Of a DNA stretch of 64,000 nucleotides, positions 43,184-63,549 are shown in pieces. The stretch covers positions 36,268 to 100,267 of the IMG/VR virus record IMGVR_UViG_3300009609_000001. One strand, 5' to 3'. The stretch is from a virus. Positions within the stretch are counted from its first letter, which is position 1. Each line of letters begins with the position of its first letter. Under the pieces are notes generated by a model. That model was given only the letters and a program-made list of their open reading frames with translations, searched no databases and had not been told where the DNA came from. Made by a program: the position numbers and the translations under genes.

Positions 43184-43239
43184 GGTATCAGATTCCCTGA
43201 GCCACGCAAAGCCATTCACCCTGGCCGCGTGTGCTCATG
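43184..43239 (+). promoter_or_regulatory. Bulged-A hairpin copy 1 plus start-codon-sequestering stem (portal)
   Basis: GGTA TCAG ATTCC CTGA GCC; rival stem TGAGC-CACGC...GCGTG-T-GCTCA(TG). Confidence 0.85.
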
Positions 43240-44892
43240 CCATCCATCAACGGCAGTAAATCCCGCCGAGACGATCCCGCCGGCAAGCATCGCGGCATCC
43301 CGCCAAACTTCGGCCGCGGCGTCGTTCCCCACGTTGCTACGTTCGTCGGCTTCATCTCCAGTTTCTCCAAGAGCTACCGGCCCAGCGACGAGGCCCTGCG
43401 GCATTCCATCGAGCAAGCCCGCTACATGCGGAACGACACCTCGATTATGGAATGCCTGGAGGCCCGCCAACGCGCTACGGCGCTGCTGAATTGGCACATC
43501 GAGCCGGAAGACGAGAAAGACCCGGAGCAAGTCGAGCTGGTCGAGAACCTGACGCGGATCGTGGAATTGACGCCGCGCTTCACGGAGTATCGACGCTGGC
43601 TCCTGGAAGCCATTTGGTTCGGCCGAGTGGCCAGCCAGAACATCTACGGCTGGGACATCCGACCCAGGCAGAAGAAACGCCTGTACGTCCGCCGCTGGAT
43701 GCCGATTCACGGCGACAAGCTGGTATTTCGCTTCGACGACGGGACCGGGAAGTACAGCGACGATCAAATCGGCATCAAGTACACGCAATTCGTCGATGCC
43801 GAGGATTTCAGCGGGCGATTCGAACTGGAGCCGACCGACTACGGCATGGCCTACTTCCTAAAGCCCTGGGAGCGGTCGCTGCTCACGGTCCATCGGCACA
43901 TGATCGAGGATGGGGCTTACGAGGATCCCCAGAGCGCCGGCAGAATCCACGGCGTCGGAATTCGGGACAGAATCTACTGGACGTGGTATCAAAAGCAAGA
44001 AGTGCTGGGGATGCTGATAGAACTGATCGAGCGAACCGGCATGGGGTTCAACATCTGGTATTACCCGGCCGGGAATGATCAGGCTTATCAGGACACCGTA
44101 GAAGCCGCCAAGAATCAAAGCGGCCAGAATGCCGTGCTGATTCCCCGCACTCCAGGTGACCCGGCGCTAGACGGCTACGGATATGACCGCATCGAGCCGT
44201 CGGGAAGTGGAATCCAGAACCTCAAGGATGTGATTCACGAGTTCTTTGGCCACCAGATCAAGCGCTACATCCTGGGGCAAACGCTGTCGAGCGAAGCGGA
44301 CGCCACGGGGCTGGGGAGCGGCGTCGCTGATTTGCACTTGGAATCCTTTCTGCAAATCGTCAAATACGACGCCACGAACTTGGAAGAGTCGATCACCACG
44401 GACCTGATCGAGCATCTCAAGCGGTTCAACTTCCCGGGGTCAAGTCATTTCCGGGTGAAGTTCAAGATCGACACGGAAGCCGCCGACGTGCAAGCCAAGC
44501 TGCAAGCCGTGTTCACCGCCTGGCAGATGGGCGCCGCTGTCCGCACGGCCGACGTGTTCGACATGATTGGCTTGTCGGTCCCTGGCCCGGATGATCAGGT
44601 ATTGGCCAATCCGCAGTTGCAACAGCAGCCGGCGCAGGAAGGGCAAGAGCCGCCGAAGTCTCCGCATCAAGCCGTCCTGGAAGCCCATTTGAACGAAGAG
44701 CCGAACGCGCACGGGGAATCTCCGCAGCAGGCGTTGCTTGAGGTCCTGACGCCCAGCAACAGCCCGGCGTCGGACGTGGCAGGCAAGGTGGTTCCACGGG
44801 GAGTAACGCGGCGGAGCGGGAATTGGAATATTACCCAGTACAATCGCAGCGGCTGGTCACGGGCGCTGAAGTTGTGGGGCGTGAGCATCTAA
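43237..44892 (+). CDS. Portal protein (Mu gp29/DUF935-like)
   Basis: LLEAIWFG, ERTG, IKRYILGQTLSSE...GLGSGVADLH. Confidence 0.85.
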   Translation: MPSINGSKSRRDDPAGKHRGIPPNFGRGVVPHVATFVGFISSFSKSYRPSDEALRHSIEQARYMRNDTSIMECLEARQRATALLNWHIEPEDEKDPEQVELVENLTRIVELTPRFTEYRRWLLEAIWFGRVASQNIYGWDIRPRQKKRLYVRRWMPIHGDKLVFRFDDGTGKYSDDQIGIKYTQFVDAEDFSGRFELEPTDYGMAYFLKPWERSLLTVHRHMIEDGAYEDPQSAGRIHGVGIRDRIYWTWYQKQEVLGMLIELIERTGMGFNIWYYPAGNDQAYQDTVEAAKNQSGQNAVLIPRTPGDPALDGYGYDRIEPSGSGIQNLKDVIHEFFGHQIKRYILGQTLSSEADATGLGSGVADLHLESFLQIVKYDATNLEESITTDLIEHLKRFNFPGSSHFRVKFKIDTEAADVQAKLQAVFTAWQMGAAVRTADVFDMIGLSVPGPDDQVLANPQLQQQPAQEGQEPPKSPHQAVLEAHLNEEPNAHGESPQQALLEVLTPSNSPASDVAGKVVPRGVTRRSGNWNITQYNRSGWSRALKLWGVSI

Positions 44893-44906
44893 CCAGGGAT
44901 TCAAAC

Positions 44907-45290
44907 ATGGAACGCAGGTCTTTCTTTGGAATGTGCATCGCGGCGATGGGTGGACTGCTTGGGACGCGCTCTGCCAAGCCGGAATTCAAGGGATCGGTTG
45001 TTGAGTGGCAGGGCGAGACCGGCACCCTGTCAAAGCCGCTGGAATCAGCCAAGCCGCTGGAATCAGCCGACCCATTTGAGGTAGTCGATGTCATGTACAT
45101 CGGCGAAGTTTTTGATGCCAATGGCGAAAGTGTCGATTGCATCACGCTACCGGTTCGCCGGATCGACGTGGATCGTTTTGGACGGGCCAGCAATTGGATG
45201 CGCGAAAATCTGACGACGACACCAAGTCGCGAGTGTCCTAAGCACGGAGATTTGATTTACGCAAAGCCGATCGGCGACAAGACAGCGTAA
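44907..45290 (+). CDS. Protein with twin-arginine-like signal peptide
   Basis: MERRSFFG plus hydrophobic stretch; 18-bp tandem repeat at 45033-45068. Confidence 0.6.
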   Translation: MERRSFFGMCIAAMGGLLGTRSAKPEFKGSVVEWQGETGTLSKPLESAKPLESADPFEVVDVMYIGEVFDANGESVDCITLPVRRIDVDRFGRASNWMRENLTTTPSRECPKHGDLIYAKPIGDKTA

Positions 45291-45349
45291 GCCGCACCCA
45301 TAACCTTATATGTTGTGCAAGTTTTTGACCCACAAGGGGGGTATTGGCG

Positions 45350-48300
45350 ATGGGAGTGCTGACCGTCTCCGAAGCAATCCGCGTGCTCTACAAGCGGATC
45401 ACTCCCGCCGTTGGCCAGAAGGAGTTCTGGTCCAATGAACCGCGCGATGCCGGTGGAAAGTGGACGACTCCGGCACATGAGGCTGTGGCACGACCAAAGG
45501 ACGACGACGAGCATTTTAAGTTGAGCGATCGCCCGTCGCCAAAGTTCGAGCCGCTTGTCGAGGATCCTCCTCGGGACGAGAAACAGCCGCCACCACAACA
45601 CGAACCACTCCCGGGTCAGAAGGAGATGTTCGGCGCGACGGTGTCTGCAAAGACCAAGCCGGCCACCAACGAAGCCCTCTGCGCCCGCATCAAGTCCGGC
45701 GACAGCGGGGCCGAGGATGCCCTGCTGAAACAGAATCAGGGTCTGGTCTACAGCATTGCCCGGCGATACACGCGCACCCCCGGCGATCTTGAGGACTTGG
45801 CCCAGGAAGGAAATATCGGCCTTCTGGAAGCCGCCCGGCGCTTCGACCCTGAGAAGGCCAAGCATTTTTCGACCTATGCCAACCTCTGGGTGCTGGCCAA
45901 GGTGGGAAACTACGCCAAGAAATCCTGGAAGCAGTCCACCACGCAAGTAGGTGGCGACGACGACGAAAGTTCTATCGACGATCTAGCCGTGGACACCGGG
46001 GACACCTCGCCTGGATCTGGACTGGAAACATCGGAGTCACAAGACAAGCTGCGCGCCGCGGTGGCAACGCTTCCTGAGCGAGAAGCCCTGGCGGTCCGAC
46101 TGCGGTTTGGTCTTGAAGGTAACGAACCGCACGAGTTCGAAGAGATCGGAGACAAGTTGGGCATCTCTCGGCAACGGGCGCACCAGATCACCGAGAAGGC
46201 GATGGAGAAGCTTCGCCGCACGATGAAATACCGGCGCGTGGCGGACGTGCTCAAGGCGCTATATGCGAAGAAGCACAAGCCCGCAGCCAATCAGGCGTCG
46301 ATGTGGGGAGAAGAACAAGAGAAGCTCCATCCCCGCGATGAGGGCGGGAAGTGGACGCACGCGCAAATGAGCGTCGCCAAGAAAGCCGTCGAGCACATGA
46401 AGGGCAAGTTGCACGGCCCGAAGAGTAAAGAGGACCTTGTGTTTGCGGCCGGCGATCACTACTTCAACGATTCCGAGGCACGAAAGCACTTTGATTCACA
46501 CAAGCATTTTCAGGAGGGCGTGAAGGCGCATTTGGAAACGTCGGAGCAACAGGCTGCGCCAGAACAGTCGGCGGCAAAAGAGCCGCACGAAATGACGCTG
46601 GACGAGTGGGTCCAATCGATGATTGGCAAGCCATATAGAAACGGCACCACGGGAGAAAATGCGGTCTATAACGAATTGGACTTGGCCCGCCTCAATCAAC
46701 TGCACGAGAATCATGTCGCCACCGAACTGATTCACGGGGGAACGGTTCTGCCCGAAGTGCTGGCCGATTATCCCGACCTGCAGCCGAAGGCCACCGAGAA
46801 GCCTCAAAACATCACCGGTAGATACTCCCGCACCCTCTCCACCCGCGACGCCCTGCGCAAGGTCATGTACGCCTCATACCGCGGGAGCGCATTCGTCGTT
46901 CCAAAGATGGTATCCCTACAGCCGCCAAAACCTGGCGTTGGCCAAAAGCACTTCGGATTCGCAGGCGATTCGGGAGTGCATCAGCCGCCGCAGGACCCGG
47001 AGTTCGAAAAGCTCCATCCTCGTGGAAAAGGCGACAAGGGCGGCCAGTTCGCCGAGAAGCCGGAAGGCGAGAAGGCAAAGGACGATGCCGAGAAGAAAAC
47101 CGAGAAGCCGGCAGCAGAATCAGCGCCACACCCTCTGGCGGCCAAGCATGCCGAGGCCAAGAAGCACGTCACGGTCCCTGGATCAGTCACGCTGTTGAAG
47201 CACGGTTCGGAGTTTCACGCCTTCGGGGACGATGCGGCCAAGCTGGCGGAACATGGCATTGGCGACGGTCAACACGCTCACTTCGGTATGGGGGAGTTAA
47301 ATCGGCACTTGACGAATCTGACGGGCAAAGGCCAGCGTGTGGCGATCGCCGAACCTCGCGGGAAAGAGCCGGTCGCCGAACCTCCAAAGCCGCCGAAACC
47401 GGAGCCGATTCCGGCCGAGCGCCCCCCTGCGATAGCACCGCCTGCCAAAGCCGCGCCAGCTCGCCGCGTTGCACCAGCGCCGGCCGTCAAGGCACAGGCG
47501 ACAAATCCACCACAGCAGCATCCCAGCGTCCAGCAAGCTCTGCGCGACCTGGAACAAAAGCACGGACTGAGGAAGTCTCCGCCGCATCAATCGGACGTTC
47601 AACTTGCGCCGGAATCGCCATCCAAGCCGCAATCCGTCAAGGAAATCATCGCATCCGTTCACGCCAAGCATGGATTGCCACCGCGAGCGAAGCCGGCACC
47701 ATCCAAGCCGCCAACCTCAATGACCCTGGCCGACATCGCCGCATGGAACAAAGCCGGACACTTGAAGATTCCGTCAAGCGTCACGTTGGCTGGCATCCAA
47801 GAACGCATGGCCAGCCGGCAATACGAGCCCGTCACCATCGCCAAGCAGAAAGACGGCACGCTGGCGGTCATCGGCGGAGCGGAAAGCCTGCTGGCTGCGG
47901 CCAAGAATCACGAGAAGCAAGTCGCCGTACGACTTTCGGACAATGCCCACAAGCACTTCGCACAGAACTCTCCCAAACCAAAGGTAGATCCGGAGAAGAT
48001 TGCCAAGGGAGTGAGCGCCATCAAAAGCCGCCTGATGAGCATTTCTGACCATTCCCCGATTCACGAGCGGGTGCATCAATCGCTTGGAACGAAGTCCGTC
48101 CGGGAAGTCGAGCAGCGATTGGACGCCGCGGCGCAATCCGGCGACATGAGCACACTAAAGGCAGTCGAGCAAGCCATCTGGCCGGATCGATACCCGAAGT
48201 CCACAAAACAAACGCTGTCCGACCTGTTCAAGAAATCCCATCAGCCGTCGTCGGAAACTCCAACCCCAGCACCGCACGAGACCCCCTCGGCATACGAGGA

Positions 48301-50077
48301 TTGGCTGCCATCTGAATTTCACCAGAACATTGCCAGCATTTCTCAAGAGCACGGCATCGACCCGGGCGACCTGCGCGAAGCAGTGGATGACCTGCACCGG
48401 GAATCCGTTGATGGCTGGCGAGAGCGTTTGAACATGTTCAACGCCTACCAAAGCAAAGGCATGACCCCCAGCAGCCTCAATGCCTGGCAGGAGTCCGGCA
48501 AGGACTTGGAAGAGTACCCCGGCATGGATGAAGCGGTAGCCAGATTCTCCGGGACGTGGGGCGAGCACGGCGGGTATGGCGCTGGCCAATTCAACGTCGG
48601 CAAGTCCAGAACCAGCGCTGCCGTAGACAGCCCAACAGAGCAATTCGTCGCCATGATGCTGGCGGGCCGGCCGCGGAAGCCGGTCAAGGACGAGGGGATG
48701 ATTCGCACGGCCGCCGCACAAGTTAAATCAGCGCAGCAGTATCGTCCGGCTAGTGGCGAGCAAGTTCCGTTCTCGCGCGAAGGCCGGAAAGAGCGATACC
48801 TGCGGGACCTTTGTGAGCATGTGAACAAAGCGGCCGGTGACTGCCACCCAAATCCCAGCGATCCGCAACGAAAAGCCGGAAACTTTCGCAAGGGCCACGT
48901 ATGGGTGCATGGCCTGCCCATCAGCATCGAAACCGCTAAGGGATTCAAGCGCTGGCCCGGGGGACCGCCTCTGGCTGCGCACTACGGCTACATCAAGGGG
49001 ACCAGCAGCCGCGACGACCAGCAGCTTGATGTATTCGTTGGCCCCGTGCCGTCGAGCCAAATCGTATTCCTGATCGACCACCGCAGAAAGAGCGGGCGAT
49101 TCGACGAGACGAAGGTCCTCATTGGTTTTTCCAGCCGAGAGCAAGCCGTCAAGGCGTATCTCTCGTCCTATCCTCCGGGCCGCAGGGCATTCCCGTTGAC
49201 CAAAATGACGATCTGGCAATTCAAGGCCTGGCTCAAGGAGGGCGACCAGCGTACCCCGGTCGAGCGACAGGTGAGCAAGTTCGCGCGGTCGCCAGCGGAC
49301 GTGCTCAAGCAGCTTTACAAAAAGATCAAGCCAGCCACCGGGCAGATCGGACTATTCGCTCCGCATCCCGCCAAAGCCTCAGTGCAGCATACCGCCACGG
49401 TCGCGCTGCCCGAGCCCAACTTCACCGGCGTTATCAAAGACAGCCTCGGCCGCGAGCAACACTACGTTGACGGCGTGCATGTGGCCGGGCCGCAAGATGC
49501 GGAGACGCCGAAGCCGGTCAAAAAGATCGAGCCAAAGCCTCGGCAGAAGTCCATGTTCGACGATGACGTGCAATGGGTCGAGGTCAACAACACCCACGTC
49601 GCGATTGAGCCGGATGGAAAGATCGTCCACGGTCCGGAAGGCATGGAAGGCAAGCAGATCGACGAGATCGAGAAGGTGGAGGAGCCAACGGATGTTATGG
49701 CCGAATCGTCGGAAGACACCGTAACGGAACCATCGCCATCTCCCTGGAAACTCTCCCGGGGCGACTTTCACAAGCAGCAGAAGCCGGGCTACGACGTTGC
49801 CGCCACGAACCGCGAACACAGGGAATCGGTCGAGCAAGCCCTGGCAGAAGGAAAGGATGTTCCCGCTGAGGCATATCGGGATTACGCTGATTTGAAGCCA
49901 AAGGCCAAGACGGTTGAGGAGGCGATTCGGGGCGTGGTGGCTCCGAAACCGATAGCGAGCGCTGCGGAACCAAGTACAATAGGATTGGAAGGCGGTCAAG
50001 AGCGTGCGCGAGGCACTGGTGGGGATTTCCTCCGTATGACGCAAAAACCGTTGACAAGTCAGCCGCAAAAAGCCTAG
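45350..50077 (+). CDS. Large polyvalent protein (sigma-70, MutS-I-like, ParB-like and InPase-like domains)
   Basis: DLAQEGNIGLLEAARRFDP...FSTYA; EEIGDKLGISRQRAHQI; EFHAFGDDA...GQRVAIAE; AGNFRKGH...HYGYIKGT...DVFVGP...FDE.KV. Confidence 0.85.
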   Translation: MGVLTVSEAIRVLYKRITPAVGQKEFWSNEPRDAGGKWTTPAHEAVARPKDDDEHFKLSDRPSPKFEPLVEDPPRDEKQPPPQHEPLPGQKEMFGATVSAKTKPATNEALCARIKSGDSGAEDALLKQNQGLVYSIARRYTRTPGDLEDLAQEGNIGLLEAARRFDPEKAKHFSTYANLWVLAKVGNYAKKSWKQSTTQVGGDDDESSIDDLAVDTGDTSPGSGLETSESQDKLRAAVATLPEREALAVRLRFGLEGNEPHEFEEIGDKLGISRQRAHQITEKAMEKLRRTMKYRRVADVLKALYAKKHKPAANQASMWGEEQEKLHPRDEGGKWTHAQMSVAKKAVEHMKGKLHGPKSKEDLVFAAGDHYFNDSEARKHFDSHKHFQEGVKAHLETSEQQAAPEQSAAKEPHEMTLDEWVQSMIGKPYRNGTTGENAVYNELDLARLNQLHENHVATELIHGGTVLPEVLADYPDLQPKATEKPQNITGRYSRTLSTRDALRKVMYASYRGSAFVVPKMVSLQPPKPGVGQKHFGFAGDSGVHQPPQDPEFEKLHPRGKGDKGGQFAEKPEGEKAKDDAEKKTEKPAAESAPHPLAAKHAEAKKHVTVPGSVTLLKHGSEFHAFGDDAAKLAEHGIGDGQHAHFGMGELNRHLTNLTGKGQRVAIAEPRGKEPVAEPPKPPKPEPIPAERPPAIAPPAKAAPARRVAPAPAVKAQATNPPQQHPSVQQALRDLEQKHGLRKSPPHQSDVQLAPESPSKPQSVKEIIASVHAKHGLPPRAKPAPSKPPTSMTLADIAAWNKAGHLKIPSSVTLAGIQERMASRQYEPVTIAKQKDGTLAVIGGAESLLAAAKNHEKQVAVRLSDNAHKHFAQNSPKPKVDPEKIAKGVSAIKSRLMSISDHSPIHERVHQSLGTKSVREVEQRLDAAAQSGDMSTLKAVEQAIWPDRYPKSTKQTLSDLFKKSHQPSSETPTPAPHETPSAYEDWLPSEFHQNIASISQEHGIDPGDLREAVDDLHRESVDGWRERLNMFNAYQSKGMTPSSLNAWQESGKDLEEYPGMDEAVARFSGTWGEHGGYGAGQFNVGKSRTSAAVDSPTEQFVAMMLAGRPRKPVKDEGMIRTAAAQVKSAQQYRPASGEQVPFSREGRKERYLRDLCEHVNKAAGDCHPNPSDPQRKAGNFRKGHVWVHGLPISIETAKGFKRWPGGPPLAAHYGYIKGTSSRDDQQLDVFVGPVPSSQIVFLIDHRRKSGRFDETKVLIGFSSREQAVKAYLSSYPPGRRAFPLTKMTIWQFKAWLKEGDQRTPVERQVSKFARSPADVLKQLYKKIKPATGQIGLFAPHPAKASVQHTATVALPEPNFTGVIKDSLGREQHYVDGVHVAGPQDAETPKPVKKIEPKPRQKSMFDDDVQWVEVNNTHVAIEPDGKIVHGPEGMEGKQIDEIEKVEEPTDVMAESSEDTVTEPSPSPWKLSRGDFHKQQKPGYDVAATNREHRESVEQALAEGKDVPAEAYRDYADLKPKAKTVEEAIRGVVAPKPIASAAEPSTIGLEGGQERARGTGGDFLRMTQKPLTSQPQKA

Positions 50078-50080
50078 TAT
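50051..50080 (+). promoter_or_regulatory. Sigma70-like promoter for the capsid operon
   Basis: TTGACA-N18-TAGTAT. Confidence 0.65.
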
Positions 50081-50100: not shown

Positions 50101-50157
50101 GGTATTGGACCAACCAAGCCCGCCGTCCCGCAAAGGGACGAGCGGGCTTTTTTATTT
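50101..50157 (+). promoter_or_regulatory. Bulged-A hairpin copy 2 overlapping an intrinsic terminator
   Basis: GGTA TTGG ACCAA CCAA GCC; AAGCCCGC...GCGGGCTT TTTTATTT. Confidence 0.9.
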
Positions 50158-50165: not shown

Positions 50166-51464
50166 ATGCCTGCAACCTTAGCTCCAATTCGCACGCCTCC
50201 TCTGGACGAATACTCCGTCGAGCACGACGTGCCGATCTTCACGGAGCACACCATCGAGGTCGAGGGCGACAGCGGCGAGAAAGAGTCCGACTGCTACGGG
50301 CTGAAGGAACTCCAGTACATCACCGACAACCTGAACAACCGCATCGAGGATACCGGCGACTTCGTGCCGATCGTCGTCGGGCACACCGACCCGGAAGATA
50401 AATCGGTCAAGCCGCCTGTCGTGGGGTTCGCCGGCCCGTACAAGATCGGGCGTTTCGGCCGAACGAAACCGCGATGGGCCATCTTTGCTGAAAATTGGTG
50501 GACGCGCAAGGATCCCGCCACGGTCGAGCTAATCAAGCAGCATCCGCGGCGCTCCGTCGAGCTGTGGCGAGAGGATCGCTACGAGGATCGGTTCTTTGAC
50601 CCGATCAGCCTCCTGGGCGCAGACACGCCTCGTCTGGACCTGGGATTGATGTTCAGCCGAACCAGCGGCAAGAAGATTCGCCGCTACTCCGCCGTGGCAC
50701 CCAGCGGCACCAATACTTTCGCTCCGACGTTCGGGGATGAAAAGAAGAAGCTCAATTACGCCGGCCCAGAGCCGGACGACATTTCCTCCGAGGAGGGCGA
50801 TATGCCTAGCGTCGATGAAATCGTTCAGGCCCTGGAACAAACCGACGTTTTTCAGTGGGCGCGCGGGAAGATGGCCGAGGAATCCGGCGTTGGTGGCGAT
50901 GCCGATGACGCTGCGCCTCCTGAGGCTCCGCCTGCCGCCCCGCCACCAGCCAATCCGCCGCCCGGCGATCAGGAGAACATGAACATGCCCTACGCCAGAA
51001 CCGGCGACAAGGACCGCTACGCCCGCCTGGAGCGTGAGTTGCGGGAAACGAAAGACTTGTACGCCAAGACGGACCGCGAGAACAAGGCCCTCAAGGATCG
51101 TCTCGACGCCAAGGACCAGGAAACGACTCGCGCCGTCCGATACGCCCGCCTGCAAGAGCTTTCCATGCAGCACGTCCTTGACCCCGAAGAGGAAATCGAG
51201 GAAGTGCTGGCGATGGACGACAAGACGTGGGACAAGCATCAGGATCGCATCCTGAACCGCTACGAGCGAATCCCCGCCGGCCGCGTGCTGCCCTACGAGC
51301 GCCCCGCGATGCTCAAGAGCGAAGCCGCTGATTCGGCCGCGGAGAAGGAAATCGCCGAAGAGGCCGCGAACCTGGTCACTTCCAAGCGGAACGCTGGCGA
51401 GAAGATCACCTACTCGGCCGCCCGTGAACTCGTTGTCCAGCAGCGCAAACAAAAGCGAGCCTAA
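50166..51464 (+). CDS. Prohead protease/scaffold (Mu gpI-like)
   Basis: VPIVVGHT...RRSVEL...ISLLG..P, then acidic/Pro linker and coiled coil; precedes capsid genes. Confidence 0.75.
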   Translation: MPATLAPIRTPPLDEYSVEHDVPIFTEHTIEVEGDSGEKESDCYGLKELQYITDNLNNRIEDTGDFVPIVVGHTDPEDKSVKPPVVGFAGPYKIGRFGRTKPRWAIFAENWWTRKDPATVELIKQHPRRSVELWREDRYEDRFFDPISLLGADTPRLDLGLMFSRTSGKKIRRYSAVAPSGTNTFAPTFGDEKKKLNYAGPEPDDISSEEGDMPSVDEIVQALEQTDVFQWARGKMAEESGVGGDADDAAPPEAPPAAPPPANPPPGDQENMNMPYARTGDKDRYARLERELRETKDLYAKTDRENKALKDRLDAKDQETTRAVRYARLQELSMQHVLDPEEEIEEVLAMDDKTWDKHQDRILNRYERIPAGRVLPYERPAMLKSEAADSAAEKEIAEEAANLVTSKRNAGEKITYSAARELVVQQRKQKRA

Positions 51465-51484: not shown

Positions 51485-51538
51485 GGTATCGGACCAACCG
51501 AGCCTGTAACACCCTCCATTCAGGAGTAACAGGCAATG
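51485..51538 (+). promoter_or_regulatory. Bulged-A hairpin copy 3 plus RBS-sequestering stem
   Basis: GGTA TCGG ACCAA CCGA GCC; GCCTGT...CTCC-attca-GGAG..ACAGGC then ATG. Confidence 0.9.
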
Positions 51539-51940
51539 TCCGGTATCCCAGGTTTTCAAGGCGTGGCTGGCGGCGACATCAACACCAGCCGCTTCGTCAA
51601 GATTTCCACCGCCGCCAACAAGACGCTCTTGGAAGCAGGCGCTAGCGAGCGTTGCTTCGGCATCTCCCAGGAAGGCACGGCGCTGGCCCCGATCCCCAGC
51701 GCAAGCGGACTAGCGGCCGTCGCCGGCAATCCGATCCACGTCTACATCCCCGGCCAGTTCTGCTTGCTGAAGATCGGCTCCGGTGGGTGTGTCGCTGGTG
51801 ATCAGCTTGCTCCAGGAACCGACGGCAAGGGCGTCATCAACACCACGGACAAGCGCTGGACCGGTGCAATCGCCTTGGAAACCGCGTCCGAAGACGAGTT
51901 GGCGCTGGTCTACGTGATGGCCGGATTCAACGCGGCGTAA
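51536..51940 (+). CDS. Capsid cement/decoration protein (DUF2190-like)
   Basis: Small Gly/Ala-rich beta protein, AGD.L....DGKG...GAIALE.A; directly before the capsid gene. Confidence 0.75.
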   Translation: MSGIPGFQGVAGGDINTSRFVKISTAANKTLLEAGASERCFGISQEGTALAPIPSASGLAAVAGNPIHVYIPGQFCLLKIGSGGCVAGDQLAPGTDGKGVINTTDKRWTGAIALETASEDELALVYVMAGFNAA

Positions 51941-51970: not shown

Positions 51971-52025
51971 GGTACTGAATCACTCAGGCCCGTGAAAGCC
52001 CCTAACAAGGAGTTGACACGTGGCT
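51971..52025 (+). promoter_or_regulatory. Bulged-A hairpin copy 4 plus RBS/start-sequestering stem (capsid)
   Basis: GGTA CTGA ATCAC TCAG GCC; GGCC-CGTG...CCT-aaca-AGG...CACG-t-GGCT. Confidence 0.85.
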
Positions 52026-53066
52026 GCTTACCCATCCGGTAGTAACACCTTCGTATTGAGCCACGACGCGACCCAGAACATGGTCGTGGACTTCGCCCGC
52101 AACATCGAGGATTTTGCGGTCAATGAGTACGTGCAAATTCGCAAGGTCGATAAGGTCGCCGGCTACTGGCTGCAAATGACAGTCGAGGAAGCCGGTCGCA
52201 TCCTGAACACGAACCTGGCCGACTTCGAGTGGGCGGATGGCACGGTCGATCCGGAAGCCAACGACGGAACCGAGTCGTTCGAGTTCCTGTCCTACCTGGC
52301 CAAGCGCTATCGCTTTGGATTCAACATGGGCTACCTGGCCAGTGGTCAGGCCGGCTGGGATATCATCGCCCAACACTCCAGCATCAAGGCCCGTCAGGCG
52401 ATGACGGCGCGCACCCAGAAGGTCGCCACGCTGTTGCAGACTTCCGGAAACTACGACTCCACGCACACCTCGGCGGTCGCGTCCATCACCGGCGTATCCG
52501 GAAAGTGGGACGTATCCACAACGGCGCGGTCTGACATCAAGCGGTCGCTCGATTACGCGGCGGACATCATCTACCGGGATACGCTCGGCGCGGTCAGCAA
52601 GAAGGACCTGAACCTGGTCGTTTCACCGGGCTGCTTGCGGAAGATGAGCGTCTCGCAAGAGATCGTCGATCTGCTCAAGGGTTCTCCCAGCGCCTACGGA
52701 TGGCTGCAAGGCGCACTGGCTGGAGAGAAGGTGGACTACGACGTTCCCAAGGAGCTGTACGGCTACCGCCTGGTGGTCGAGGGAGCGGTCAAGGTCACTT
52801 CCCGCAAGGGCGCCACCCGCGCCACGAGCTATGTCTGGAGTGACACGTCGCCAGCGCTCATCAGCCGCGTAGGCGCGTTGGAAGCCAAGATTCCTTCGCA
52901 GGCCCCCAGCTTCTCGACCTGCACGCTGTTCATGCAAGAGGAAATGACGGTCGAGACCCGCGATGAACCGGACAACCGGCGCACGAAGGGCCGCGTGGTG
53001 GAATGCTACGACACGAAGCTGACCGCGCCTTCGAGCGGGTTTTTGTTCACGTCGGCTGTGGCCTAA
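52020..53066 (+). CDS. Major capsid protein
   Basis: 348 aa, position, C-terminal SGFLFTSAV; AAGGAG RBS and GTG start. Confidence 0.85.
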   Translation: MAAYPSGSNTFVLSHDATQNMVVDFARNIEDFAVNEYVQIRKVDKVAGYWLQMTVEEAGRILNTNLADFEWADGTVDPEANDGTESFEFLSYLAKRYRFGFNMGYLASGQAGWDIIAQHSSIKARQAMTARTQKVATLLQTSGNYDSTHTSAVASITGVSGKWDVSTTARSDIKRSLDYAADIIYRDTLGAVSKKDLNLVVSPGCLRKMSVSQEIVDLLKGSPSAYGWLQGALAGEKVDYDVPKELYGYRLVVEGAVKVTSRKGATRATSYVWSDTSPALISRVGALEAKIPSQAPSFSTCTLFMQEEMTVETRDEPDNRRTKGRVVECYDTKLTAPSSGFLFTSAVA

Positions 53067-56807: not shown

Positions 56808-56894
56808 GATAACGGACGCCAAGCTTGGCTTCATCGCAATGGCCACCGCCAAAAGAACATACGCCGCGACGACCCCCGAAATAGTTTTTTTCAT
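56766..56894 (-). CDS. Possible 42-aa membrane peptide
   Basis: MKKTISGVVAAYVLLAVAIAMKPSLASVILGPVFFVVLSRFL. Confidence 0.35.
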   Translation of the reverse strand: MKKTISGVVAAYVLLAVAIAMKPSLASVILGPVFFVVLSRFL

Positions 56895-56898
56895 GTGA

Positions 56899-58836: not shown

Positions 58837-58875
58837 CTCGCCATTATGCAAAACCTGCTAAACTAACCGCCAACT

Positions 58876-58927
58876 GGTATCGGACACACCGAGCCGCGCG
58901 TTCCCTCCGGGGACGTGCGGCTTTTTT
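58876..58927 (+). promoter_or_regulatory. Bulged-A hairpin copy 5 overlapping an intrinsic terminator
   Basis: GGTA TCGG ACACA CCGA GCC; GAGCCGCGCGTTCCC-TCC-GGGGACGTGCGGCTT TTTT. Confidence 0.9.
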
Positions 58928-58941
58928 CATGGAGATAGACC

Positions 58942-59370
58942 ATGAGCGCCACAACCATCGAAGCAGAAGTCCTGGAAGCCTCGTCCGCCAAGACCGCCAG
59001 CAGCACGGGCACGACGGCGATCGGGGGCCGCGGCGAGTTCCGAGCAGCGGAGTTTGAGCTTGACGTGACGGTATCCGACACGGACGCCGGCGACACCCTT
59101 GATGTTTTCATTCAAACCACGATCGACGGGACCAACTGGCTGGATGTCGTGCATTTCACCCAGGTCATCGGAACGGATACCGCCAAACGGTTCGTCGCCA
59201 AGATCGTAGGCACGCTGGCGGAAGCCATGTACGAAGTCGCCTCAGCCTTGGCCGCCGGTTCCGTTCGCCACATCCTTGGAAAACGCTACCGGGCGCGATG
59301 GGACTTGGTGGACGCCGGTGCCGACAACGCGAGCTTTACCTTTTCGATCACTGCGAACTTCATCCCCTGA
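58942..59370 (+). CDS. Putative virion structural protein
   Basis: LDV....TLDVFIQT..DG.NW.D...F.Q...RYRARW beta-sandwich pattern. Confidence 0.65.
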   Translation: MSATTIEAEVLEASSAKTASSTGTTAIGGRGEFRAAEFELDVTVSDTDAGDTLDVFIQTTIDGTNWLDVVHFTQVIGTDTAKRFVAKIVGTLAEAMYEVASALAAGSVRHILGKRYRARWDLVDAGADNASFTFSITANFIP

Positions 59371-60974
59371 TGGCAGTCAATCTGACAACGCTGTTCACTC
59401 GCTGGGGCAAGATGCTCTTTGCCCTGAACACGCTCAACACTGCGCGTCTGACCACGGTTCCGGATGAAATCCAGGATGTACTCGACGAGTTCGCCTCGGC
59501 CTCGGCGGCCATTCTCTCCACGGTTGACAATCTTCCCGATGCCATTCCCGCCTGGCAGTCAGGGACCGGCAGCATCGCCACGGAGCTACAGGCTTCATTT
59601 CAGGCCCTACTGGTGCAAATGGTCAAGGATGACAACGTGCAACCCGATGACGCACTGCTGACGGCCTACGACGAGCTATTGCGGCAAATGGACGCCAGCA
59701 GCGACACGGTAGACGCCAGCGTGGTTGCGGGCACGGCGACGGCGGACGCTGGGAATACCGGGACCGGCGCCTTTCTGGTTTCCGTAAAACGTGGCGATGG
59801 GCGCAGCGAAGAGAACCTCTACGCGGAAGATGTCCGCTTCATTTGCACGGCGCGCGGAGAATCGGCGACGTTCAGCTTCGCCGGGGAACCCACGGTCGAT
59901 TACCTCTCTGAGCAATGGCCAGATGGCTCGGGCTGCTCGGGCAGCGTGACCGTCATTACCTCAGACGACAGCCTGGCTGACAATGGCGGCTTTGAGGACG
60001 AAGACGATATTTCTGACGTGCCCGATGGTTGGGAAGTGATCGTCGGCACTCCTGGGACCACGTTTCGAATTACGGAGCCCGAAGTTCAAACGGTTGTGAT
60101 TTCCGGGACTCCCACACTGGGAACCTATGCCCTGGTGTTCACCAACGCTGCCGGAAAGGTGCAAATCACTGGCCCACTCGATTTCGACGCTGACGGTGGG
60201 ACCGTGCAAGCAGCCCTAAATGCCCTGATTGGCGCGGAAGGCTGGACGATTGACACCACGGGGACCAGCCCAAACTACACGCACACGATCACCATGCTGG
60301 ACGGACCCGGAGGCAACGTCACTCAGCTTAGCAGCATGGCCTCGGCCACGTTCAATGGCACGATCGGCCACGCGACGACAACCGTTGGTGGGGAATCCTT
60401 CCGTGGCTCGAAGTCCCTGGAGTTCATCGGCGGGGCCACGCTCAATGCGATTCAGATTCCACTGGCAGATCTGACGGCCGCGACCGCCTATGCCTGCAAC
60501 ATCTGGGCGAAGGTGAGTTCCGTTCCCGGCGCGGGGGACTTTCGCATCTGCCTTTGGGATGGCTCGGCGGTCGTCAACGATGATCAGGGCGTAGCCAACA
60601 GCCTGACTGTCAACTGCCCCGGTTTGACAACGAACTGGGCCGCCCAGAAGGTGATGTTCCAGACCCCGTCCGTTATGCCGCCAGTCTTGTATCTGCGGAT
60701 CGAACTGACGACCGCGCTTTCCGGCGGGGTGTCTCTGTACCTGGACGAGCTGGCGTTCGATGCGGCAGATTTGTTGTACATTGGCGGGCCAAATGCTAAA
60801 CTGTTCTCCGGTTCAACCCAATGGGAAGTAGCGGACGCCTTTACGCTGGCAATGACGAACGACCGGGCGGGAGAATTCCAGACAGGAGTGTTTCGCGCAA
60901 TTCAATCTCCGGAAAGATTGTTGCCAAGCAACGCGGCGGCTGGTGAAACGATCAGCGACGCGCTGGTCAGCTAG
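59370..60974 (+). CDS. Putative virion/tail protein with carbohydrate-binding-like module
   Basis: NGGFE...PDGW, EVQTV.ISG.PT.GT, LYLDEL; ATG overlaps upstream TGA. Confidence 0.65.
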   Translation: MAVNLTTLFTRWGKMLFALNTLNTARLTTVPDEIQDVLDEFASASAAILSTVDNLPDAIPAWQSGTGSIATELQASFQALLVQMVKDDNVQPDDALLTAYDELLRQMDASSDTVDASVVAGTATADAGNTGTGAFLVSVKRGDGRSEENLYAEDVRFICTARGESATFSFAGEPTVDYLSEQWPDGSGCSGSVTVITSDDSLADNGGFEDEDDISDVPDGWEVIVGTPGTTFRITEPEVQTVVISGTPTLGTYALVFTNAAGKVQITGPLDFDADGGTVQAALNALIGAEGWTIDTTGTSPNYTHTITMLDGPGGNVTQLSSMASATFNGTIGHATTTVGGESFRGSKSLEFIGGATLNAIQIPLADLTAATAYACNIWAKVSSVPGAGDFRICLWDGSAVVNDDQGVANSLTVNCPGLTTNWAAQKVMFQTPSVMPPVLYLRIELTTALSGGVSLYLDELAFDAADLLYIGGPNAKLFSGSTQWEVADAFTLAMTNDRAGEFQTGVFRAIQSPERLLPSNAAAGETISDALVS

Positions 60975-61170
60975 AATCAAAAACGGTGCAAAATGGTGAT
61001 CTCCTTGAAGCTTGGCGTGATCCGACAAGATTCTCAGGGAGAGTACCGTTATGCCACGAAAAGGACAGCCGCGCACAAATCGTTTTTGGAAAAGAAAGCG
61101 ACCGCTATTCGCGCGAGGTTGGCGGTTGCCGGTTAGAAGAATCGGCCACGGCCGACGAAAGTAAGGAACG

Positions 61171-61416
61171 ATGTCGATTCACGAGATGTACGGCCGCATG
61201 GCGGAGGAAAACCAGCGACTTGCGCAGGAGTACAAAAACCTCCTGGGATTGCTGGACAGCGTGCGGACCGGCAAGGTCGATCCAGCGAGAATCGAAATCA
61301 ACATGGCCGCCGACTCGTGGACGCTGCTGCCAGATAAACCGGTCGCGGAAAAGTCAGAGAACGGCGAGTGGAAGAAACGTGATCCAGTCACCGGAGCGGA
61401 GTTAGCACCGAACTAA
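61171..61416 (+). CDS. Small hypothetical protein
   Basis: AAGGA RBS. Confidence 0.6.
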   Translation: MSIHEMYGRMAEENQRLAQEYKNLLGLLDSVRTGKVDPARIEINMAADSWTLLPDKPVAEKSENGEWKKRDPVTGAELAPN

Positions 61417-61431
61417 ACTTAACTGCCTTTC

Positions 61432-61490
61432 GGTATCGGATTCCACCGAGCCGCAGAGTCCCAACGGATTCTGACGGCTCGTTTCTTTTT
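61432..61490 (+). promoter_or_regulatory. Bulged-A hairpin copy 6 overlapping an intrinsic terminator
   Basis: GGTA TCGG ATTCCA CCGA GCC; CGAGCCG-CAGAGTCC...GGATTCTG-A-CGGCTCG TTTCTTTTT. Confidence 0.9.
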
Positions 61491-61501
61491 GGAATTCGAT
61501 C

Positions 61502-62716
61502 ATGGCTCTTACCGCTTCCAACGGCTTGGCGATGGCTGGCACGACAGCCCAGCGTCCCGGATCTGCGGAGACCGGTCAGCCGTATTTCGATACCACCATC
61601 ATGGGCTGGATCGTGTGGAACGGCACGACCTGGCAAGATGCCGCCGATTCTGCCTCGGCTGATGCCGCAATTGGCTCAATCACAGGCGGAGACTCGTCCC
61701 TTGCAATCGCCGGCCTGGCAGCCTCCGGGAGCGGTGCCGGTGGGTCCGTACCAATTTCCGGGTCAGTCGGCGGAACGCATACAACGGGCACTGGTGGGGC
61801 TGGTGGGGCATCTGGAATCACGGCTGGAGCTGGCGGCGCGGCGAGCGGCGCGGCTGGTGTCGGCGGGGCCGGCGCGGCAGCGAACCTTACTGCTGGTGCT
61901 GGCGGCGCTGCGTCAAATGCGGCGAGCGGAAACGCTGGAGCCGGTGGTGCATCTACCGTCTTGGCTGGCGCAGGCGGGGCCGCGACCGGGACTGGCGCTG
62001 CCGCTGGCGGAGCTGGTGGTCTGGCGAGCGTAACAGCCGGCGCTGGTGGCGCAGCAGCGGGAACGTCTGCCGCGGGCGCGGGCGGCGCAGCTTCCCTTGT
62101 CTCCGGCGCTGGTGGCGCGAAGAGCGGCACAGGAACGGCCAACGGCGGCGCAGGCGGGACAGTCTCGATCACTGGCGGCGCTGGAGGGGCAACGGCGTCA
62201 ACCGATGCAGGATCGCTTGGTGGGGCTGGCGCACCTATTTCGATCACTGCCGGAGCTGGTGGGGCTTGCTCTGCGGGAACCGGCGCAGGTGGTGTCGGCG
62301 GCACGATCACGCTGGCTCCCGGAGCCGGCGGTACGTCAGCCGGCGGAAATGCTGGTGCGCCGGGTCGAGTCAAGGTTGGCGGCGCTGGCCTGTTCGCGTT
62401 TGCCAATGCTCAGACGATCGACATGGCCGACGCCACGGTGCAACTCACGCTGGTTCCCGGAGTCCCAGCCGGCACGCTACTGACTTCCACGGTGCTGTAC
62501 ATCGACGCCAACTCTGGCGCGACCGAAGACCTGGAGTTGCCGCACGAAGCGGACTCGAACGGCTTGGTGCTGATTGTCAAGAACACGGGTGGGGAAGACA
62601 TCGTGGTGAAAGACGATTCTGGAGTCACGACCATTTGCACGATCAGCACCACGGAAAGCGCCGTCCTGTTCTGCGACGGCACAACTTGGAGCGGATTCGT
62701 CGGACAAACAACGTAA
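61502..62716 (+). CDS. Gly/Ala-rich repeat fibre/adhesin-like protein
   Basis: GTTAQRP...YFDT...WNGT.W N-terminal domain, roughly 20-aa GAGG repeats, beta C-terminal domain. Confidence 0.75.
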   Translation: MALTASNGLAMAGTTAQRPGSAETGQPYFDTTIMGWIVWNGTTWQDAADSASADAAIGSITGGDSSLAIAGLAASGSGAGGSVPISGSVGGTHTTGTGGAGGASGITAGAGGAASGAAGVGGAGAAANLTAGAGGAASNAASGNAGAGGASTVLAGAGGAATGTGAAAGGAGGLASVTAGAGGAAAGTSAAGAGGAASLVSGAGGAKSGTGTANGGAGGTVSITGGAGGATASTDAGSLGGAGAPISITAGAGGACSAGTGAGGVGGTITLAPGAGGTSAGGNAGAPGRVKVGGAGLFAFANAQTIDMADATVQLTLVPGVPAGTLLTSTVLYIDANSGATEDLELPHEADSNGLVLIVKNTGGEDIVVKDDSGVTTICTISTTESAVLFCDGTTWSGFVGQTT

Positions 62717-62813
62717 TTATGTGGTTTTGAAACAAACTAGACATGATAAAATGACCCCGCGATGTTGTAAGCATCCGGGGTCGTGGCCAAAACCTGAAAG
62801 GAAGGTTTCGACG

Positions 62814-63479
62814 ATGATTAGGGTACGCGAGGAAGCGTGTGGCGTAAAGCAGGGAGACAAGTTCGAGCGACTTGAGGTAATCGGCTGTCCGTTCAGCAAT
62901 GGAAAAGGCAGGTGGTGGGCTGTTTGTTTGTGCGAATGCGGAAACGTTATCGTCTCAGACGTGCAGAACCTGAAAAAGCCAAACCATACAACGTCTTGCG
63001 GTTGTAGACATAAAGAAATCACCAGGAGCCAAAAGCCGAACCTTAAGCACGGAAAAACGGATCACCCGCTTTACTCTGTTTGGATTGGAATGCGCCGGCG
63101 ATGCACAGACGAAAAAGATCAGGAGCACTTTAGGCGATACGGAGGTCGGGGCATCTCGGTTTGCGACGAATGGCAGGACTTCGAGGCATTTTACCAATGG
63201 GCAATTGCGAACGGATGTAAGCCCGGCCTGACCATCGACAGGCGAGATAACGACGGAAATTACGAACCAGGAAATTGCCGCTGGGCGACGGATGTTGAGC
63301 AGTCAAGAAACATAAGCACTAATGTGCTCATTGCTGCGTTTGGCGAAACAAAGTGCGTAAGTGCGTGGGTCGAAGATGAACGATGTGTCGTGAAGCATCA
63401 CACCCTGCTAGGCAGAGTCCACGCAAACAAAATGACCGCTGAGCAGTGCATTACACAGCCGTCTCGAAACCGACGGTAA
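62814..63479 (+). CDS. HNH homing endonuclease
   Basis: CLCECG, SCGC, YGGRGISVCDEW, IDRRDNDGNYEPGNCRWAT. Confidence 0.9.
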   Translation: MIRVREEACGVKQGDKFERLEVIGCPFSNGKGRWWAVCLCECGNVIVSDVQNLKKPNHTTSCGCRHKEITRSQKPNLKHGKTDHPLYSVWIGMRRRCTDEKDQEHFRRYGGRGISVCDEWQDFEAFYQWAIANGCKPGLTIDRRDNDGNYEPGNCRWATDVEQSRNISTNVLIAAFGETKCVSAWVEDERCVVKHHTLLGRVHANKMTAEQCITQPSRNRR

Positions 63480-63490
63480 ACACATTTCTC

Positions 63491-63549
63491 GGTATCAGAC
63501 CAACTGAGCCGACGGACTTCCGCAAGGAGGTTCGCCGGCTTTTTTGTTT
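63491..63549 (+). promoter_or_regulatory. Bulged-A hairpin copy 7 overlapping an intrinsic terminator
   Basis: GGTA TCAG ACCAA CTGA GCC; GAGCCG.CGGACTTCC-GCAA-GGAGGTTCG.CGGCTT TTTT. Confidence 0.9.

Follow-up and report, generated by a model that had tools for sequence, protein, structure and literature searches.

A short bulged hairpin fused to terminators and start-region stems ahead of phage late genes, a widespread and apparently undescribed on/off switch

Why should one short RNA hairpin recur before one virion gene after another in a single phage genome? The question is raised by a window of 64,000 nucleotides (positions 36,268 to 100,267 of the virus record IMGVR_UViG_3300009609_000001), in which an earlier note had reported seven such copies. 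Pattern searches found all seven again on the plus strand (Table 1), and they were also recovered by a scan of the whole genome (100,267 bp) constrained by structure. The motif has the form GGUA-4 bp-loop-4 bp-GCC, and its seven copies are confined to the plus strand and to the virion block. The pattern with a 5-nt loop, to which copy 6 is the exception as the sole copy with a 6-nt loop, gave six matches against 0.95 expected, a number reached in none of 100 shuffles. One extra GGT-A-4bp-loop-4bp-GCC match was returned by the structure-constrained scan, at 47983, inside a giant ORF and with a 7-nt loop whose first nucleotide is C. Under a covariance model trained on all seven, the copies scored 27.8–32.9 bits, while the next-best match in the genome reached 10 bits.

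The intergenic placement described earlier holds for 7/7 copies, which begin 10–39 nt past the upstream stop codon and end 27–49 nt ahead of the downstream start. Likewise, each of the seven non-coding spacers identified in the virion block holds one copy, a count that rests on a hand-picked set of plus-strand ORFs between 43173 and 64000 and on judgement as to what is non-coding; four further gaps exceed 50 nt, and these coincide with alternative ORFs or with a start on the minus strand. The labelling of all downstream genes as structural was supported in part. The portal and the major capsid protein (twelve relatives with 44–55% identity) are supported, as is a head-tail adaptor in the same block, the 134-aa gene is scaffold-like by a weak match, and the two fibre-like genes have a virion-protein N-terminus in common. 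The 432-aa and 142-aa genes gave no match, to PHROG or Pfam for the former and in family searches for the latter.

Table 1. Coordinates of the hairpins, the helices that share nucleotides with them and the neighboring genes (positions in the window).
Feature	Coordinates	Strand	Description and basis
Hairpin copy 1	43184..43203	+	Before portal gene; pattern search, covariation, covariance model
Hairpin copy 2	50101..50120	+	Pattern search, covariation, covariance model
Hairpin copy 3	51485..51504	+	Pattern search, covariation, covariance model
Hairpin copy 4	51971..51990	+	Pattern search, covariation, covariance model
Hairpin copy 5	58876..58895	+	Pattern search, covariation, covariance model
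Hairpin copy 6 (6-nt loop)	61432..61452	+	Pattern search, covariation, covariance model
Hairpin copy 7	63491..63510	+	Pattern search, covariation, covariance model
Rival stem at copy 1	43199..43236	+	Shares GAGCC; over portal start region (GTG 43231, in-frame ATG 43237); without U-run
Intrinsic terminator at copy 2	50118..50153	+	Stem 50118-50147, U-run 50148-50153; begins with the GCC shared with copy 2; folding
Rival stem at copy 3	51502..51534	+	Shares GCC; encloses inner stem pairing Shine-Dalgarno; ends 1 nt before ATG 51536; folding
Rival stem at copy 4	51988..52024	+	Shares GCC; includes GTG start 52020; folding
Intrinsic terminator at copy 5	58893..58927	+	Stem 58893-58921, U-run 58922-58927; shares GCC; folding
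Terminator at copy 6	61447..61490	+	Stem 61447-61481, interrupted U-run 61482-61490; 6 nt in common; folding
Intrinsic terminator at copy 7	63508..63545	+	Stem 63508-63539, U-run 63540-63545; shares GCC; folding
Promoter-like site	50051..50080	+	Perfect -35 hexamer, 18-nt spacer, TAGTAT; ends 20 nt before copy 2; rated by consensus match only
62-aa ORF, DUF2292/YezD-like candidate trans-acting factor	42985..43173	+	Ends 10 nt before copy 1; position of the family gene in other phages
Portal gene	43231..44892	+	phrog_113, E 5e-37
432-aa gene, scaffold/protease position	50166..51464	+	Position only
134-aa scaffold-like or decoration-like head gene	51536..51940	+	phrog_673, E 5e-9
Major capsid protein gene	52020..53066	+	phrog_1005
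142-aa gene	58942..59370	+	Without family match
Fibre-like virion gene 1	61502..62716	+	phrog_20787 N-terminus
Fibre-like virion gene 2	63565..64000	+	Likely ATG 63565 preceded by AAGGAG; extends beyond window

The compensatory stem changes that had been claimed are borne out by the seven copies, in which 49/49 cells pair and both partners have changed in each of the four upper-stem pairs. Across phages, 26 distinct instances pair in 182/182 cells, 25 of which are double changes, and they have an invariant U-G wobble, a bulged purine and an A/C-rich loop. The GGU/GCC closing pairs and the bulged A, said to be invariant, are so inside this phage, whereas elsewhere the bulge may be a G or two nucleotides long and the closing triplets vary in concert. 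The pairs include G-U, and all copies are oriented with the adjacent genes, both of which argue for an RNA structure rather than duplex DNA, as had been proposed.

Each 3′ arm had been described as the 5′ arm of a larger rival hairpin as well. Folding confirms U-run terminators after copies 2, 5, 6, and 7 and start-region stems after copies 1, 3, and 4, and nucleotides are indeed shared (3–6 nt), but usually this is just the final GCC (6 nt at copy 6) and not the entire arm. By itself, the small hairpin is worth −4.3 to −6.4 kcal/mol, and enforcing it costs 2.7–14 kcal/mol; for example, the leader of copy 1 has a minimum free energy of −18.3 kcal/mol, compared with −15.6 kcal/mol when the small hairpin is enforced. 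The view that the small hairpin and the terminator or start-occluding stem are mutually exclusive, with a trans-acting stabiliser needed, is supported. The joint switch of transcription and translation envisaged in the earlier note is supported in its terminator arm and weaker in its translational arm, since at copy 3 the Shine-Dalgarno sequence stays paired in its inner stem despite the enforced small hairpin, a pairing that is independent of the toggle.

A U-run follows in 35 instances; 29 of these have a terminator stem that begins with the final 3 nt of the motif, and 30 have a stem that abuts the U-run. When the middle two stem base pairs were left free in a scan, a terminator was found at 14/14 complementary matches vs. 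0/28 non-complementary ones (Fisher p = 2e-11). With positions 1–2 and 19–20 left free, pairing occurred in 25/27 terminator-linked matches vs. 7/39 others (p = 1e-9), and the 3 nt preceding the U-run complement positions 18–20 in 24 of the 27 terminator-linked matches. The free-flank scans yielded five different triplet sets (e.g., GGU/GCC/GGC, GCU/GGC/GCC, and UCU/GGA/UCC), that is, a three-way covariation. Therefore, both competing helices are under selection, and the element is a real two-state switch.

The hairpin-terminator fusion was found in about 50 instances, nearly all of them in IMG/VR contigs with 30–67% GC, across which the hairpin core is nearly identical; a few are in bacterial assemblies and in the Streptococcus satellite Javan243. 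The six complete virus records with the motif have almost no other protein in common, and different capsid families are represented among the annotated motif-bearing phages. Where neighbors were annotated, the motif comes ahead of late genes, lying just upstream of small terminase, portal, scaffold/protease, capsid, or tail genes. Among the twelve loci encoding relatives of the major capsid protein, the sole motif variant was one carried by both L013 and L014, whose loci are near-identical, and no match to the small protein described below was found in the stretches examined. The motif matched no Rfam family, in agreement with the earlier note, and we likewise found neither a paper nor a solved structure that describes such a hairpin-terminator switch, which is widespread and apparently undescribed so far.

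In most other motif phages, a DUF2292/YezD-like gene of 45–130 aa ends just upstream of the hairpin, and in an all-against-all comparison a small ORF in this position was the sole family common to at least 5 of 14 sequence sets. The association of gene and RNA is also recovered from the protein side. A profile search with the small protein gave 10 matches in 201 Planctomycetota genomes, and all of the four best testable loci carry a match to the RNA model trained on the window, 50–130 nt downstream on the same strand. The family is DUF2292-like and comprises 1275 cluster representatives. In this phage, the gene in the corresponding position is the 62-aa ORF, whose sequence links it weakly to the family: left out of the family profile, it was the top match among 1959 ORFs (E 0.074), it went undetected once its two nearest look-alikes were also removed, it had no direct match to PF10055 (the Pfam DUF2292 model), and hhalign aligned it with the family in the right register (probability 31%, P 5e-4). 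Its fold, as predicted by AF2 (a helix at residues 3–30 and a beta-hairpin at 36–60, pLDDT 83), agrees with the family, since a member passing the Pfam DUF2292 cut-off has the same predicted topology. For this combination of helix and beta-hairpin, we found neither a solved relative nor a known RNA-binding precedent. Several copies are distant from the small gene, including six here and others in three further phage sequences (G002, L218, and L185), which argues for recognition in trans.

Taken together, we think it probable that a DUF2292/YezD-like protein, here the 62-aa product, clamps the hairpin and prevents termination, such that the late genes are read. Each copy would be a two-state RNA toggle. 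In the backward state, the GCC would pair with the 5′ GGU to form a 7-bp hairpin with the bulged purine and the invariant U-G wobble, whereas in the forward state it would pair with the GGC abutting the U-run and close the base of the intrinsic terminator or, at three copies, form part of a stem over the start region instead. Because the small hairpin alone is weak, the default would be termination or an occluded start. Bound to the small hairpin of the nascent transcript, the protein would clamp it and keep the three base pairs adjoining the U-run from forming, so that RNA polymerase reads on, and at the three non-terminator copies clamping would loosen the start region. Since the gene of the putative factor heads the virion block, the virion genes would be turned on only after the factor has accumulated, and seven local checkpoints would couple head, unknown-family, and fibre genes to one factor. 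The analysis shows the two rival helices and the selection on them, the tie to late genes, and the co-occurrence of gene and RNA; from these we infer the protein-RNA binding, the direction of its effect, and this timing logic. The upper 4-bp hairpin is compatible with a simultaneous terminator, and therefore the protein could instead recognize the terminator-form junction, reversing the sign of the effect. That the hairpins might also set the stoichiometry of head and fibre proteins is speculation.

There is some chance, albeit a low one, that the same toggle has another stabiliser, such as a host protein, another phage protein (e.g., a CsrA-like product), or a small ligand. The weak family membership of the 62-aa ORF leaves room for this, the phage does encode a CsrA-like ORF, and a core that is nearly the same at 30–67% GC would also suit a universally conserved partner. 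However, several copies have lost GGA, the recognition triplet of CsrA, through covariation, a hairpin of 20 nt offers little room for a ligand pocket, and the hosts span Streptococcus to Planctomycetota, making a lineage-specific host factor unlikely. Moreover, the small gene accompanies the hairpin in phages with nothing else in common, and their co-occurrence emerged from the protein-first search as well.

It is rather unlikely that the element is a tuned attenuator independent of any factor, in which either GGU:GCC pairing lowers the strength of each terminator to a fixed degree or RNA polymerase is a direct target of the hairpin, as it is of HK022 put RNA, with the transcript ratios of the operon being set in this way. 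Such a role would suit the stoichiometry idea of the earlier note, and since the small hairpin is transcribed and formed ahead of its rival, the toggle alone could make the terminators leaky, as its folding suggests. However, the conservation of the wobble, the purine bulge, and the loop in the 26 distinct instances exceeds what pairing needs, a purely structural leak leaves the partnership with the small gene unexplained, and a terminator that cannot be overridden makes little sense before the most abundant proteins, scaffold and capsid.

We consider it improbable that the hairpins are processing or stability signals, i.e., nuclease or protective sites that divide the late transcript into units of differing half-life. 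Their intergenic position, transcribed orientation, and adjoining stable hairpins recall the RNase III sites of T7, but this would explain neither the three-way covariation, in which the 5′ and 3′ triplets change together with the one preceding the U-run, nor why the partner is a canonical U-run terminator in about 90% of instances. Control in cis by translation is very unlikely. A ribosome at the upstream stop codon, often just 2–35 nt from the hairpin, could cover the GGU and choose between hairpin and terminator, with the small ORF as a leader peptide; however, the distance extends to 120–470 nt in some phages and is 50–130 nt in the Planctomycetota loci, the copies in the window follow six different genes that are unrelated to one another, and the small ORF belongs to a conserved family with a confidently predicted fold. 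A DNA-level site (operator, recombination site, or nicking hairpin) is scarcely credible, for although the motif is an inverted repeat with conserved sequence, its compensatory changes preserve pairing and not sequence, its G-U pairs are A-C mismatches on the opposite strand, and it always points along transcription and is fused to terminators.

The proposed protein-clamped hairpin has partial parallels among known systems. RAT, the target of the CAT-PRD proteins BglG, SacY, and LicT, is a short hairpin with a bulge that forms in the nascent transcript and shares its 3′ nucleotides with the 5′ arm of an intrinsic terminator, and the bound protein causes local read-through, with one site per terminator. 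The hairpin described here resembles it in the bulge, the nucleotides shared with an intrinsic terminator, the proposed stabilising protein, and the one site per terminator. However, RAT is about 29 nt long with its own consensus, and its CAT-domain binders are under sugar-phosphorylation control, whereas the motif described here mostly shares just 3 nt with its terminator, and its putative binder is a 45–130-aa protein with a helix and a beta-hairpin; no CAT domain was found in this phage by a search that detected it in control genomes. Lambda N and nut boxB resemble the proposed switch in that a small phage-encoded protein is combined with a small hairpin whose pentaloop is A-rich, and in that terminators are read through into later genes. 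Yet N needs just one or two nut sites, from which it acts processively together with boxA and Nus factors, and its boxB hairpin is separate from any terminator, whereas here each terminator has its own hairpin with shared nucleotides, and no boxA-like element was seen by eye in the motif flanks. For copies 1, 3, and 4, the best analogy is Com of phage Mu, a small phage protein that binds a hairpin at mom and opens an adjacent stem hiding a late-gene start region, although Com contains a zinc ribbon and its effect is confined to translation; a Com-family search found no match in this phage and was equally silent in the controls.

By its description, the motif is also like the “ABC-leader,” a candidate attenuator that precedes the alkanesulfonate transporter operon in bacilli and was predicted to be an antiterminator/terminator leader, with a protein factor not excluded by the authors (Naville and Gautheret, 2010, PMC2965389). 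That paper names no protein partner and does not mention phage.

Finally, the layout at copy 2 resembles that of lambdoid PR′-tR′ and Q, in which a terminator ahead of late genes lies no more than tens of nucleotides past a promoter. Q binds promoter DNA and rides with the polymerase, whereas here the conserved element is an RNA hairpin, and no member of the Q family was found in this phage by searches that detected it in controls. The promoter-like site upstream of copy 2 is the top sigma-70-type match in a 20-kb scan (10/12 positions), and the same order of promoter, hairpin, and terminator recurs in the related locus L013.

All seven bulged hairpins that the earlier note had described in the window (starting at 43184, 50101, 51485, 51971, 58876, 61432 and 63491; copies 1-7) were found by pattern searches at those positions on the + strand, in what is the final 64 kb of a complete virus record of 100,267 bp with 123-bp terminal repeats. 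A loose pattern with a 5-nt loop gave six matches against 0.95 expected, a number reached by none of the shuffles, and a structure-aware scan of the whole genome returned the seven copies and one unrelated match within a giant ORF. The covariance model R1, built from the seven copies as the earlier note had proposed, scores them at 27.8-32.9 bits, with the next genome match at 10 bits. The intergenic placement claimed for every copy held as well: from 43173 to the window end, each of seven spacers judged non-coding on a hand-picked set of + strand ORFs contains one copy, and the four remaining gaps longer than 50 nt coincide in part with alternative ORFs or a minus-strand start. Distances are 10-39 nt from the preceding stop codon to a copy and 27-49 nt from a copy to the next start, within a virion module with genes for the portal, a 1577-aa MuF-like giant protein, a 432-aa product without known family, a scaffold-like 134-aa product, the major capsid protein, an adaptor, a tape-measure-like protein and two fibre-like proteins.

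Two paralogous HNH endonuclease genes (phrog_374) flank this block; the former shortly precedes a small ORF encoding 62 amino acids, which terminates 10 nt ahead of copy 1, and the latter stops 11 nt before copy 7. The 1577-aa protein has DarB-like regions in addition to the MuF-like minor-head ones, and its residues 102-356 match PHROGs annotated as RNA polymerase sigma factor.

The stem covariation on which an RNA structure had been argued was confirmed, in that all 49 pair cells are standard and the four upper-stem pairs each change on both sides; within the phage, the GGU/GCC pairs and the bulged A are constant. The isolated hairpin is predicted by folding to be weak (-4.3 to -6.4 kcal/mol), and the minimum-free-energy fold of all leaders hands the 3' end of the copy to a bigger downstream hairpin, as expected from the rival hairpins proposed before. 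At 50101, 58876, 61432 and 63491 this rival is a G+C-rich stem with a U-run directly after it, that is, a canonical intrinsic terminator, and in these four copies both positions 1-3 and the three nucleotides before the U-run complement positions 18-20. At 43184, 51485 and 51971 the U-run of an intrinsic terminator is absent and the rival stem lies over the start region. The earlier note had suggested dual control of transcription and translation; the four terminators fit the transcriptional half, but the translational reading is weaker, because the inner stem that pairs with the Shine-Dalgarno sequence at 51485 survives when the small hairpin is enforced and is therefore independent of the toggle.

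Coordinates of the features discussed
Record	Feature	Coordinates	Strand
Window	CsrA-like reading frame	~23900-24130	minus
Window	tRNA-Leu (GAG) gene	29536-29619	minus
Window	HNH endonuclease gene, first	41862-42695	
Window	62-aa ORF	42985-43173	plus
Window	Stem over start region, copy 43184	43199-43236	
Window	1577-aa protein	45344-50077	
Window	Promoter-like site	50051-50080	
Window	Terminator with U-run, copy 50101	50118-50153	
Window	Stem over start region, copy 51485	51502-51534	
Window	Stem over start region, copy 51971	51988-52024	
Window	Terminator with U-run, copy 58876	58893-58927	
Window	Terminator with U-run, copy 61432	61447-61490	
Window	HNH endonuclease gene, second	62721-63479	
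Window	Terminator with U-run, copy 63491	63508-63545	
L013	Promoter-hairpin-terminator layout	5330-5560	
L165	Tandem duplication	7640-8440	
L166	20-mer without terminator	7449-7708	
L167	20-mer without terminator	7885-7904	
L218	Element with all three triplets changed	12326-12380	
L295	Javan243 module (MK448381.1 6450-6685)	2335-2570	

Beyond the window, exact-pattern scans of IMG/VR yielded about 50 instances of the hairpin-terminator class, nearly all of them in viral contigs of 30-67% GC and a few in bacterial assemblies. Four complete or near-complete records that were counted have one copy each, record G002 has four, and loci L218 and L185 have two or three. Where neighbours are annotated, the element is found just 5' of small terminase, portal, scaffold/protease, capsid or tail genes. 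The capsid proteins of the carrier phages belong to different PHROG families, and six complete records have almost no common protein by BLAST. In 12 loci related to this phage by their capsid proteins (44-55% identity) a strict GGTA copy is absent; among capsid relatives the model picked up a single variant, which has a promoter-like site and occurs in L013 and L014, two loci that are nearly identical.

Whether hairpin and terminator are jointly maintained can be read from searches in which paired positions were left free. With the middle two stem pairs free, 14 of 42 matches are complementary, and a terminator follows all 14, compared with none of the 28 non-complementary ones (p 2e-11). With positions 1-2 and 19-20 free, 66 distinct matches were obtained, 27 of which have a terminator starting at the 3' end of the motif; the free positions pair in 25 of these 27 versus 7 of the 39 others, about the chance level (p 1e-9). 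The three bases before the U-run complement positions 18-20 in 24 of the terminator-linked instances, so that the toggle arrangement appears in 24-25 of the 27 instances found with those positions unfixed. Five sets of hairpin 5' triplet, 3' triplet (positions 18-20) and triplet preceding the U-run occur: GGU/GCC/GGC, GCU/GGC/GCC, UCU/GGA/UCC, CUU/GGG/UCC and AGU/GCU/GGC. For example, one element of L218 has all three interacting triplets changed in concert (GCU/GGC/GCC), whereas the other two copies of that phage are GGU/GCC/GGC. In 26 distinct instances pairing extends to all 182 cells, U3-G18 is a wobble throughout, and the bulged base is A in 23 cases and G in the other three; the counts at positions fixed in the search pattern are non-independent evidence. 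Among 39 folded instances, 35 have a U-run; in 29 of these 35 exactly the last three nucleotides are shared, and in 30 the stem abuts the U-run. The three-way covariation of the triplets shows that the lower stem of the hairpin and the foot of the terminator are both selected, and is the signature of a switch.

Five bacterial assemblies hold only 0-2 structured copies each, which rules out a general terminator feature of the hosts. Exact 20-mer matches in bacterial genomes, those in Pirellulales and gammaproteobacteria included, appear mostly to be chance or coding cases, and a terminator follows few of them. Read in frame, the letters of the 20-mer can spell a short peptide rich in glycine and threonine, which recurs in some loci, and the commonest form of the 20-mer is also found without a terminator in L166, L167 and many other loci; L166 has a near-copy 240 nt upstream that looks like a protein repeat. 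Because of such coding look-alikes, plain pattern scans return spurious matches and have to be filtered for a terminator or for pairing.

In an all-against-all BLAST comparison of 14 sequence sets, the sole protein family common to at least five was a small ORF ending just 5' of the hairpin, and no other shared phage protein emerged as a candidate partner. A profile places a member of this family beside the motif in the majority of instances and at none of the loci lacking the terminator, and a low-GC subgroup has divergent versions of the small protein at the same place. The family is DUF2292/YezD-like: the member in L214 scores 24.2 bits against the PF10055 cut-off of 22, and 5 of 17 aligned members match at E up to 0.1. 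The family is large, its cluster representatives numbering 1275 at E up to 1e-3. Searching from the protein side, we obtained 10 matches of the family profile in 201 Planctomycetota genomes, and each of the best four testable loci is followed on its own strand, at a distance of 50-130 nt, by an R1 match, the covarying stems being new ones; the genes that come after these modules had no match in PHROG annotation. Among cultured phages, tblastn and blastn searches with family members and one module gave no match. A 30-nt query, in turn, hit five Streptococcus satellite records. In satellite phage Javan243 (MK448381.1), a 53-aa hypothetical protein (QBX08295.1) stops 2 nt before a hairpin of the UCU/GGG variant, the terminator comes next, and the module lies between the primase gene and a downstream operon; the same 16-nt core is matched in four more Javan satellite records. 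A contig of a Candidatus Scalindua MAG (L165) carries a tandem duplication whose period is 419 nt; a small-protein gene, an identical 20-nt hairpin and a terminator make up each repeat unit.

The 62-aa ORF is the corresponding candidate in the phage. It is not matched by PF10055 at the Pfam cut-off, and a homologue search with it returned itself alone. A family profile built without it (from alignments A1/A4 of the hairpin-linked proteins) ranks it top of 1959 ORFs of the genome at E 0.074, but no longer detects it once the members from L186 and L043 are also removed, and hhalign aligns it with the family in the correct register (probability 31%, P 5e-4). By sequence, the ORF is only a borderline family member. 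Its predicted fold, a long helix with a beta-hairpin (pLDDT 83), is that of the L214 protein, and in size, position and predicted fold it agrees with the family. In the Atlas, its neighbours by structure comprise hypothetical proteins of viruses and Planctomycetota and a DUF2292 cluster at TM 0.59. Among solved structures, Foldseek found no relative of the small protein at E up to 0.001, VIA-align reached a Z of 4.8 at best, and a sequence search gave no match. We consider that the ORF probably belongs to the hairpin-linked family.

The overall pattern fits a local protein-stabilised antiterminator. In such a mechanism, the factor would clamp the GGU:GCC pairs plus the bulge, wobble and loop, and the clamped hairpin would block the three G-C pairs beside the U-run, allowing RNA polymerase to continue. 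Six of the seven copies here are distant from the small gene, each with a different gene before it and a different gene after it, which argues against a simple 3' UTR or leader-peptide reading and for recognition in trans; nature offers no better case for such recognition than this phage. Further, of the sigma-70-type promoter matches in the 20-kb virion block, the best one, with a perfect -35 hexamer, an 18-nt spacer and TAGTAT, spans the stop codon of the 1577-aa gene and has its 3' end 20 nt before copy 50101. Since promoter-like site, hairpin and terminator are arranged similarly in L013, copy 50101 at least may be a gate close to its promoter, in the fashion of lambda PR'-tR'.

Taken together, we hypothesize, with doubt and confidence evenly balanced, that the DUF2292/YezD-like mini-proteins are antiterminators that bind RNA and form a large family so far unrecognised as such. 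Their operator would be a bulged hairpin of 20 nt, which competes for three base pairs with the foot of an intrinsic terminator. One 62-aa protein would here govern seven dispersed checkpoints, four transcriptional and three translational, and would thereby unite the whole virion module in one RNA-level regulon; phages and satellites from Streptococcus to Planctomycetota would share this switch. If true, this would for the first time assign a function to a domain of unknown function with over a thousand sequence clusters, account for the puzzling strong terminators immediately 5' of capsid genes, and supply synthetic gene control with a small orthogonal part. To our knowledge, late-gene timing is not known for most tailed phages beyond the lambdoid, T4 and T7 models. 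The proposed switch is compact: it needs an RNA element of 20 nt, a terminator and a protein about 50-60 aa long, and the phages that carry it differ widely in composition and in capsid lineage.

The earlier note had not recognised the motif as a described family, and the window indeed has no Rfam (release 15) match at gathering scores; over 43000-64000 at E up to 10, only weak terminator-driven matches (Xoo2, Trp_leader and others) appear, far under the cut-offs. In the literature on DUF2292/YezD and phage antitermination, and by sequence, we found no published description of the hairpin-terminator class, the sole lead being a survey that lists a candidate attenuator in bacilli (Naville and Gautheret, 2010, PMC2965389).

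Among known systems, RAT/BglG-SacY-LicT antitermination is similar in logic, and here, too, some nucleotides of the hairpin belong to the 5' arm of the terminator. However, the CAT RNA-binding domain (PF03123) is lacking from the 100-kb genome, whereas it was detected in four control genomes. Likewise, lambdoid Q (searched as PF06530) was detected in controls and not here, which places the switch outside the RAT/BglG and Q families. The logic of Mu Com acting on mom resembles that of the three start-region copies; the Com zinc-ribbon PF10122 gave no match, and its controls were silent as well. The same holds for ANTAR (PF03861), whose RNA is a dual hexaloop hairpin, in contrast to the single hairpin with a 5- or 6-nt loop here. 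CsrA is an unlikely binder, since GGA is not conserved in the motif. A CsrA-like reading frame without a canonical in-frame upstream start was spotted by eye in the six-frame translation, and a tRNA-Leu gene is also present.
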